DNA from: a virus | Taxonomy: Duplodnaviria > Caudoviricetes | DNA length: 61,664 bases | Reading direction: 5' to 3' (one strand) | IMG/VR virus record: IMGVR_UViG_3300014862_000003 | Span: 1-61,664 of that record | Shown here: positions 51,301-51,880 of the stretch, in pieces | Layout: each line of letters opens with the position of its first letter | Numbering within the stretch: the first letter of the stretch is position 1 | Translations under genes and position numbers: made by a program | Notes under the pieces: generated by a model | Told to the model about the DNA's origin: nothing | Databases searched by the model: none | The model's input: the letters and a program-made list of their open reading frames with translations, nothing else

Positions 51301-51719
51301 CCCTGCATGAGCAGATCGAGGCGGCCATCAAGGACCGACTCGCAGTAGCCCAAGCGGCGCAGCCCGGACCGTGGATGACCGGTGAGACCGCGCCACACCT
51401 CGTGGACGCCGTGGTCTATGGCCAGTCGACCAGCTGGCCGGGTCACATCACGCAGGCCTGCAACGTCGAATACGCCGACGGCGGCATGGCCAACGCCCGC
51501 GCCATCGCCGCCAACGGGCCGGACCGCATCATCCGGGACTGCCAGCGGGACCTGAAGGTGCTGGCTCGGCACGGGCCAGCACGCCGTCTCGGCGGAGTCC
51601 ACGAGATCTGCGCCCACGACTGGGCCGACAGCGACGGGTGGCTGTCCATGTGGCCCTGCGCCGAGATTGCAGACCTCGCCGAGTCCTACGGCATCACTCC
51701 TACGGAAGGAACCCCATGA
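51297..51719 (+). CDS. DUF6221-like protein
   Basis: AQAA.PGPW, NARAIAANGPDRIIRDC..D..VL..H, WPC.....LA..YG. Confidence 0.7.
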   Translation: MTLHEQIEAAIKDRLAVAQAAQPGPWMTGETAPHLVDAVVYGQSTSWPGHITQACNVEYADGGMANARAIAANGPDRIIRDCQRDLKVLARHGPARRLGGVHEICAHDWADSDGWLSMWPCAEIADLAESYGITPTEGTP

Positions 51720-51880
51720 CCGACCCCGACTTCCCGCCGCTGATCGACGTCTCCAAGGTCTCCCTGGCCGACCTGATCACCTCCGACGTCGACGCCCTGT
51801 CCCGGTGCATTCAGCGTCTCGTCGAGGCGTTGGACGACCCGGACGGGATCATCTCCGCCTTCCAGAACTTCGCCTCCTGA
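51716..51880 (+). CDS. FxSxx-COOH (FxsA)-like RiPP precursor peptide, orphan
   Basis: MTDPDFPPLIDVSKVSLADLITSDVDALSRCIQRLVEALDDPDGIISAFQNFAS; ATGA coupling and AAGGA RBS. Confidence 0.75.
   Translation: MTDPDFPPLIDVSKVSLADLITSDVDALSRCIQRLVEALDDPDGIISAFQNFAS

Follow-up and report, generated by a model that had tools for sequence, protein, structure and literature searches.

The window analysed here is an entire IMG/VR virus record (61,664 bp; completeness 100% by CheckV estimate) and contains an fxsA-like gene at 51716..51880 on the + strand. The gene comprises 54 codons and a stop codon. It was recognised by its translation, by the family model TIGR04268, by a profile of FxsA peptides encoded next to FxsB and by its GC content at third codon positions (GC3 0.85). 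The translation agreed with the 54-aa peptide of the original prediction, including the quoted leader pieces (LIDVSKVSLADL and ALSRCIQRL) and the C-terminus ISAFQNFAS. Based on alignment columns and a complex model, the product (protein P0001) was divided into a leader part (residues 1-44; 51716..51847, +) and a core part (residues 45-54, IISAFQNFAS; 51848..51877, +) with the motif F49-Q50-N51. The leader contains P8-L9-x-D11-V12-S13, a helix from A27 to L35 (the piece ALSRCIQRL) and L39-D-D-P-D-G44.

A Shine-Dalgarno-like sequence, GGAAGGAA, was read at 51704..51711 (+), 4 nt 5' of the ATG. The ATG (51716-51718) overlaps the TGA of the upstream ORF (51717-51719) in an ATGA at 51716-51719, and the following ORF begins 13 nt past the stop codon of the peptide gene, at 51893. 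Because of the overlap, the Shine-Dalgarno-like site and the 13-nt spacing, the tight coupling of the gene within a run of + strand genes is real, and the operon coupling claimed earlier was borne out. The GC content by codon position in the frame 51638-51880 was 0.66/0.44/0.85, which is the coding pattern of this genome (67% GC). A scan of positions 46000-58000 returned no promoter-like sites and three terminator-like sites (3.2 expected), none of them on the + strand close to the peptide gene.

Read cover was looked at in three DNA sequencing runs, which contained one near-identical contig that is possibly the source of the window DNA. A short X2 contig touched positions 51688-51811 of the fxsA gene with a mean word depth of 0.55, and independent read cover was absent at 51812-51935. 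Short fragments of relatives were present around 52.2-53.0 kb.

The upstream gene (51297..51719, +, start uncertain) encodes a DUF6221 protein (PF19730, E 7.9e-7, 30.2 bits with a cut-off of 27.6). The downstream gene of the same run (51893..52192, +), taken from the ORF list, encodes 99 aa with a GC3 of 0.87 and had no match in Pfam and PHROG searches. In total, three to four small ORFs without assigned function follow the peptide gene, and then an HTH_3 regulator (53406-53819, +). Right of the immunity region, the same run also holds HTH proteins, two nucleases (an Rv2179c-like exonuclease and a PDDEXK, DUF3799, nuclease), a RusA-like resolvase (49137-49571, +) and an ORF with a DUF397 domain. 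The left border of this rightward early/recombination arm is formed by a tyrosine integrase (36492-37352, -; phrog_1 integrase, E 2.6e-33) and a repressor-like HTH protein (37416-38606, -; phrog_4583 repressor, E 5.6e-14), which together span 36492..38606.

Among the structural genes were a large terminase subunit (568-2184), which shows at most ~27% identity to the terminases of isolated actinophages, and a major head protein (10922-12406); in addition, a 1916-aa ORF begins with a portal domain. Because integrase, repressor-like protein, terminase, portal, head protein and recombination genes are all present, the window represents a temperate actinophage of the siphovirus type, with the peptide gene in the early/recombination arm. 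The phage is from soil or sediment, and its genome is complete by the CheckV estimate. A megablast of positions 49000-56000 against GenBank phages gave no match.

TIGR04268 was the single NCBIfam family that matched the phage peptide (E 4.6e-5, 23.6 bits). The match spans residues 10-51 of the peptide and positions 1-42 of the 44 profile positions, and a six-frame search of the record gave 22.7 bits for the same peptide. The match to this model, which the original prediction had proposed as a check, is thus significant, though its 23.6 bits lie below the curated cut-off of 28 bits. At E<=10, TIGR04268 also matched 8 of 14 control genomes, and within the window it gave one more weak match, of 13.5 bits. 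Both the score under the cut-off and these background matches would be in line with a chance resemblance, i.e. with an acidic Leu/Ala-rich small ORF of a high-GC genome that has nothing to do with FxsA.

The wider searches gave a different picture. In an unbiased phmmer scan against 1.84 billion representatives, 74 proteins of the family were found at E<=1e-3. After two long repeat-type matches were dropped (P0010, 1179 aa; P0029, 946 aa), 74 rows formed the alignment A1. The relatives kept are peptides of 45-105 aa that align end to end, with the consensus PLxDVS...LxRxxxRL..SLDDPxGVISAFxSF, and 48 of the 74 rows matched TIGR04268 at E<=0.01. With a profile of 21 unique FxsA peptides adjacent to FxsB, the phage peptide scored 86.9 bits (E 2.9e-26), compared with 9.8 bits for the best of 1000 shuffles. 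The loci behind this profile were picked by their likeness to the query; their adjacency to FxsB is independent of that choice.

The column counts of A1 point in the same direction. In the leader, L9 was found in 66 of the 74 rows, D11 in 69, R34 in 67, P42 in 66 and G44 in 68; in the core, S47 was found in 70, A48 in 69 and F49 in 73. All six near-invariant residues (D11, R34, G44, S47, A48 and F49) are present in the phage peptide, which matches the family end to end. Given the phmmer scan, the shuffle comparison and the column counts, chance resemblance is effectively refuted, and we regard it as barely conceivable.

Compared with FxsA precursors of TIGR04268, the phage peptide is of the same length class, has the leader PLxDVS ... 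ALxRxxxRL ... LDDP[DN]G[VI]ISAF in common with them and carries an aromatic-x-[S/N] core at the same position at the C-terminus. It differs in being encoded by a phage without an FxsB, HExxH hydroxylase, FxsT or FxsC gene, in having Asn instead of Ser as the third core residue, in scoring under the curated cut-off and in being at most 61% identical to bacterial copies (the best bacterial match among the copies found). The literal F-x-S-x-x-COOH pattern does not apply: the phage peptide ends in F-Q-N-F-A-S, with Asn for Ser and three trailing residues. In A1, the span from the Phe to the end is exactly 5 residues in 4 of 74 rows and 6 residues, as in the phage peptide, in 29. Position 51 is Ser in 63 rows and Asn in 11, with no third residue. 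A peptide of Allorhizocola rhizosphaerae that is encoded beside FxsB has a tandem AFQN..AFQN core at its end, and because of this the Asn at the third core position is a natural, FxsB-linked variant. Judged by profile scores, relatives and kept columns together, the phage peptide is a true but divergent homologue of the FxsA family, as the earlier reading of the locus had it.

The closest relative, P0002, is 70% identical over the full length, ends in ISAFQNMAS and lies on a contig of 1621 bp; it was the sole relative found in a word-index search. P0003 (59% identity), on a contig of 110,569 bp, and P0004 are further close relatives. P0001 and P0002 both carry the precomputed database label PF27839.1. 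PHROGs gave no match for the phage peptide. Two further candidates were rejected as noise: a match to Pfam PF05579 (E 0.042) and, in a tblastn of the peptide against 50,697 GenBank phage records, a minor tail protein of one phage, filed twice (E=2).

No partner gene of the FxsA family was found in the phage. In the 61,664-bp record, the radical SAM model PF04055 had no match at E<=1, the FxsB model TIGR04269 had no match and a tblastn with an FxsB protein found nothing. Hence, the stated lack of a radical SAM gene holds for a record that is estimated to be complete. A tblastn with bacterial FxsB, HExxH hydroxylase and FxsT (E<=0.01) likewise returned nothing in the window or in seven other viral or orphan sequences. 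By these searches, the phage gene is an orphan: genes for FxsB, radical SAM enzyme, HExxH hydroxylase and FxsT are absent from the complete record.

The situation in bacteria is the opposite. When 185,579 species genomes were scanned with an alignment of N-type peptides, 23 bacterial loci were obtained. Those with names belong to genera of the Micromonosporaceae (Allorhizocola, Actinoplanes, Hamadaea, Dactylosporangium, Catellatospora, Virgisporangium, Phytohabitans and Asanoa), and the others to the unclassified actinomycete isolate KLBMP 9797 and to Actinomycetota MAGs. A metagenome scan added two loci, namely L038, a 2464-bp contig with an N-type peptide that looks like an orphan, and an ordinary bacterial fxs locus; the latter brought the number of bacterial loci to 24. 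FxsB lay immediately 3' of fxsA in 24 of 24 (a partial match in L014), and HExxH hydroxylase and FxsT were each found in 23 of 24. Bacterial fxsA is thus strictly linked to FxsB and also tied to the HExxH hydroxylase and the NTPase-TPR protein FxsT. In the locus of Dactylosporangium aurantiacum (L015), FxsB scored 450.8 bits with TIGR04269, the aKG-HExxH beta-hydroxylase 160 bits with TIGR04267 and FxsT, with an NB-ARC-type NTPase and TPR repeats, 731 bits with NF040586. The TIR protein FxsC was not among the ORFs chosen in this locus, a choice that may have missed it; its place as a partner is taken from a preprint (10.64898/2026.10.19.760177). Of the partners named in the original prediction, FxsB and the NTPase-TPR protein were therefore recovered across the loci, and the TIR protein was not found among the ORFs chosen in the one annotated locus.

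Orphan copies recur in other phages, as the proposed survey of phages had anticipated. An IMG/VR scan with the single peptide gave 49 pattern matches and no relatives. With alignment A1, six further IMG/VR loci with fxsA-like genes were found. Their peptides are intact and have canonical AFQS or AFSS cores. FxsB was found in none of the five whole IMG/VR records searched, among them one of 132.7 kb that has direct terminal repeats and two of 56 and 58.7 kb with a completeness of 95% and 94%, respectively. PHROGs around the peptides identified phage genes (primase, portal/head protease, minor-tail-type domain), and the peptide is the only thing that the window and these loci have in common. Since L005 and L006 come from one phage and L007 is a relative of L008, the six loci represent at least four further phage lineages with an orphan fxsA. 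In the conserved gene part of the pair L007/L008, pN was 0.037 and pS 0.222 (pN/pS 0.17; few sites and small counts).

The phage itself could be placed by its major head protein. In an even class-wide sample, the best matches had 51-53% identity, and 13 of 401 genomes matched; in the family of Dactylosporangium, the best match had 76% identity over the full length, and 15 of 401 genomes matched. On the best capsid contig (G413:C402, 48.9 kb), the structural module is syntenic with that of the window at 45-86% identity, the integrase is 39% identical to that of the window and the right arm is largely different. No fxsA-like gene was found on this contig. As it is the nearest related phage contig, the fxsA-like gene is accessory and dispensable in the lineage of the window phage.

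Position in a hypervariable right arm and absence from the closest related phage contig are what would be expected of a functionless passenger, i.e. a fragment of a host fxs locus that was gained by illegitimate recombination and is still awaiting loss. The gene does not look like such a remnant. Its reading frame is unbroken, and it has a ribosome-binding site, an overlap of its start with the upstream stop and the GC3 of a coding sequence. The best bacterial match is just 61% identical, whereas P0002 is a full-length relative at 70%. Moreover, intact orphan copies were found in at least four other phage lineages, and the pN/pS in one phage pair was low. We consider a passenger quite improbable.

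From the capsid matches, we infer a host of the Micromonosporaceae type, in the family of Dactylosporangium; host and fxs status are both assigned at the level of the family. Among the five genomes with the closest capsids, FxsB was over the cut-off in four. In G413, fxsA lies directly beside FxsB on a different contig from the prophage, and in G427 neither FxsA nor FxsB was found. Across the family, FxsB was over the cut-off in 148 of 301 sampled genomes (a tally that includes the unpublished genome G602) and was not found in the other 153. Fxs loci are thus frequent in the likely host family. Matches of the FxsA profile away from FxsB in three genomes (G642, G650 and G762) were rejected as prophage orphans. 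No genes of the window phage were present in the 20-kb stretches around them, and the peptides are of a different type, with tails such as ...GEPIAGFNSA. and ...AAHGSTPA...; HExxH and FxsT-like genes are neighbours of some of them.

A passage of a review (PMC10114670, citing Nguyen et al. 2020 Nat Chem) counts FxsB among the rSAM-SPASM enzymes for which cyclophane formation on the precursor has been reported. Triceptides are described in a passage of another paper (PMC11499958) as carrying three-residue aromatic-to-C-beta cyclophanes, which 3-CyFE radical SAM enzymes install on aromatic-X-X motifs. The F49-Q50-N51 of the phage peptide fits the aromatic-X2-X3 motif of triceptide precursors with a third residue that bears a C-beta. 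It differs from these precursors in that a maturase in cis is absent and cross-linking is a prediction. A further candidate, PMC12912966, was set aside, as the passages concerned describe a different triceptide cluster, with an ADP-ribosyltransferase.

The phage peptide (74-row alignment) was modelled in complex with the FxsB of Dactylosporangium aurantiacum (18-row alignment), which served as a stand-in for the host enzyme. The median complex score was 0.62 (runs: 0.64, 0.59 and 0.62), compared with 0.00 for the best of three controls. The pLDDT of the partner was at least 58, and at least 50% of the contacts were common to the runs. Of 80 solved complexes, 58 reached the score mark, as did 2 of 110 mismatched pairs; these figures are a rough guide only, as own alignments were used. 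The contacts with the lowest error join leader residues of about 25-35 to FxsB residues 278-299 and 412-426. In the core, residues 45-46, 48-49 and 52 contact FxsB residues 54-55, 115, 149, 151, 173, 216, 219 and 244. To the model, the phage peptide resembles an FxsB substrate; this is a likeness, not binding by this copy.

Taken together, the phage probably feeds a look-alike peptide into the Fxs system of its host. The host machinery suggests itself as the entry point because the phage has no maturase, the leader positions are kept and the aromatic-x-Asn core would be modifiable. In the proposed sequence of events, the phage would supply the FxsA look-alike together with its rightward early/recombination genes, early in infection. 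The peptide would bind host FxsB by its leader helix and present F49-Q50-N51 to the radical SAM site, as a substrate or as a competitor. It would then be cross-linked by FxsB, or it would stay and block the enzyme. As a consequence, the state of the linked module of FxsT (a STAND NTPase-TPR protein) and FxsC (TIR) would shift in favour of the phage, e.g. if the module monitors or releases the supply or processing of a host peptide and the phage copy replaces or out-competes this peptide. The phage copies all keep the core, which speaks for contact with the active site, or with a later reader of the tail, rather than for mere competition by the leader. The sole core substitution in the phage copies is to the single alternative residue that the family allows. 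That the peptide acts through the host Fxs machinery in favour of the phage, by precursor mimicry and counter-defence, is in our judgement evenly poised. Modification or competition in vivo, an immune role of Fxs and a benefit to the phage are what we infer.

The peptide might instead act independently of FxsB, with its unmodified form binding the TPR sensor of FxsT as an antagonist through a free C-terminal tail, or binding an unrelated protein of the host or the phage. Short C-terminal peptides are frequent ligands of TPR domains, FxsT combines an NB-ARC-type NTPase with TPR repeats and the defining motif of the family is anchored at a free C-terminus. Nevertheless, the leader positions suited to recognition by a maturase are all kept in the phage copy, and the model puts the leader on FxsB. 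We rate action without FxsB as rather improbable.

What Fxs loci do in the host was addressed in a bioRxiv preprint of October 2026 (10.64898/2026.10.19.760177). Passages of it present FxsC and FxsT as parts of predicted TIR-ParA apoptosis-type immune systems and suggest, for the FxsAB peptide, the role of an antiviral molecule or of an alarm signal; the antiviral role of Fxs loci is accordingly a prediction of this preprint. The passages of the preprint that contain 'Fxs' make no mention of phage-encoded copies. No description of phage-encoded FxsA was found in the literature searched; supplementary tables, which are possibly relevant, lay outside its scope. What is new here would be a known precursor family in a virus-borne, enzyme-less form.

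Acting via the host machinery, the peptide may have its effect in one of three directions: a silenced suicide module, mimicry of the alarm peptide or a benefit to the lysogen. Only tentatively do we read orphan fxsA genes as anti-defence genes in the strict sense, with a precursor look-alike that occupies FxsB, or is processed by it, and so silences or misdirects a TIR/STAND-NTPase Fxs suicide module; we would sooner bet against this specific form than for it. If true, this would be the first case of a virus mimicking a RiPP precursor, and it would show by direct genetic evidence that Fxs loci are antiviral.

A hijack for the benefit of the phage or the lysogen would begin in the same way, with host FxsB maturing the phage peptide, and would end in a signal or toxin. 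Such a product could serve communication between infected cells, exclusion of competing phages or the fitness of the lysogen. The phage is temperate, with integrase and repressor, and none of the phage copies has lost the core motif, which would be expected if the modified product is what counts. The modelled docking is substrate-like, with the core near the radical SAM site, and passages of the preprint (10.64898/2026.10.19.760177) propose that the Fxs peptide may be a diffusible signal. By contrast, the gene lies mid-way in the rightward early run, away from the immunity/attachment region, and the 46000-58000 scan showed neither a promoter-like nor a terminator-like site belonging to it. No export or processing gene was found next to it by Pfam and PHROGs. 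At the level of the sequence, this explanation makes the same predictions as counter-defence through the host Fxs machinery. We rate it as unlikely, though it deserves attention.

The significance of the preferred reading, precursor mimicry directed at the host Fxs system, lies in how little of that system has been characterised. Roughly one in two sampled genomes of the family has an Fxs locus, and chemical characterisation covers the FxsB step only. The apparent repeated viral capture of the small peptide, never of the enzymes, is the kind of footprint that a conflict between host and virus leaves. An orphan phage fxsA would offer a simple genetic handle on the function of Fxs loci and on RiPP precursors as viral decoys.

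Two known types of small phage factors invite comparison. Phages mimic labile components of host immunity, e.g. with antitoxin mimics against toxin-antitoxin abortive infection such as pseudo-ToxI and T4 Dmd. The proposed common logic is that an early phage copy of a small host component keeps a suicide module quiet. In the case of the phage peptide, the component would differ, by this analogy, in being a RiPP precursor that needs, or competes for, the host maturase. The second type is the arbitrium peptide AimP, a small peptide used in phage communication. Like the proposed case, AimP is short, encoded by the phage and dependent on host functions for its maturation. Arbitrium phages bring along a receptor and a regulator of their own, whereas the window phage carries the peptide only, and this peptide is homologous to one of the host.

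Peptides that match the FxsA profile but end in other tails (...GEPIAGFNSA., ...AAHGSTPA...) were found in 20-kb genome stretches: L059 (~8800-10200; genome G762), L060 (~8900-10150; genome G650), and L058 and L061 (both genome G642). HExxH-hydroxylase-like and FxsT-like (NTPase-TPR) genes adjoin some of these divergent-tail peptides, and the radical SAM maturase FxsB was not found within the 20-kb stretches around them. These loci appear to form a sister system, either maturase-less or hydroxylase-only.

Some FxsA-like peptides had a Cys-rich N-terminal extension of the CCxxxxxCxC type (L038 and the protein relatives P0021, P0033, P0041, P0043 and P0069). 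The L038 peptide (779-1309 of a 2464-bp metagenome contig) has an N-type core, and FxsB was absent from the 1155 bp downstream of its gene. The bacterial FxsA of Allorhizocola rhizosphaerae (L009, 9878-10174), encoded directly upstream of FxsB, carried two tandem core copies at its C-terminus (AFQN-Y-AFQN-LAS).

In the window, the fxsA-like gene is preceded, at a distance of 1.6 kb, by a DUF397 domain ORF (PF04149, E 1.1e-9; 49596-50144, plus strand). Directly 3' of the fxsA-like gene in two other phage contigs comes a small ORF (L007, 744-935; L008, 1545-1727) that matches phrog_10815 (unknown function) and appears DUF397-like by eye. A DUF397-type ORF is a possible recurrent neighbour of phage fxsA-like genes.

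The window also contains a single open frame of 1916 aa (2318-8068, plus strand). Its portal protein match (PF04860, phrog_12) is confined to residues ~92-406, near the N-terminal part; the remaining ~1500 aa had no Pfam or PHROG match. Against the related phage contig G413:C402, the match spans 452 aa only. A glycosyltransferase-like domain (PF13524; 19871-20944, plus strand) sits within the tail/structural module, and a GntR-family regulator (36017-36451, plus strand) adjoins the integrase. ARAGORN reported a tRNA-like gene ('tRNA-???'; 31932-32019, plus strand) with an undefined two-base anticodon, in the non-coding stretch that follows the structural/lysis genes. This may represent a tRNA that has degenerated, or else what is left of an attachment site.
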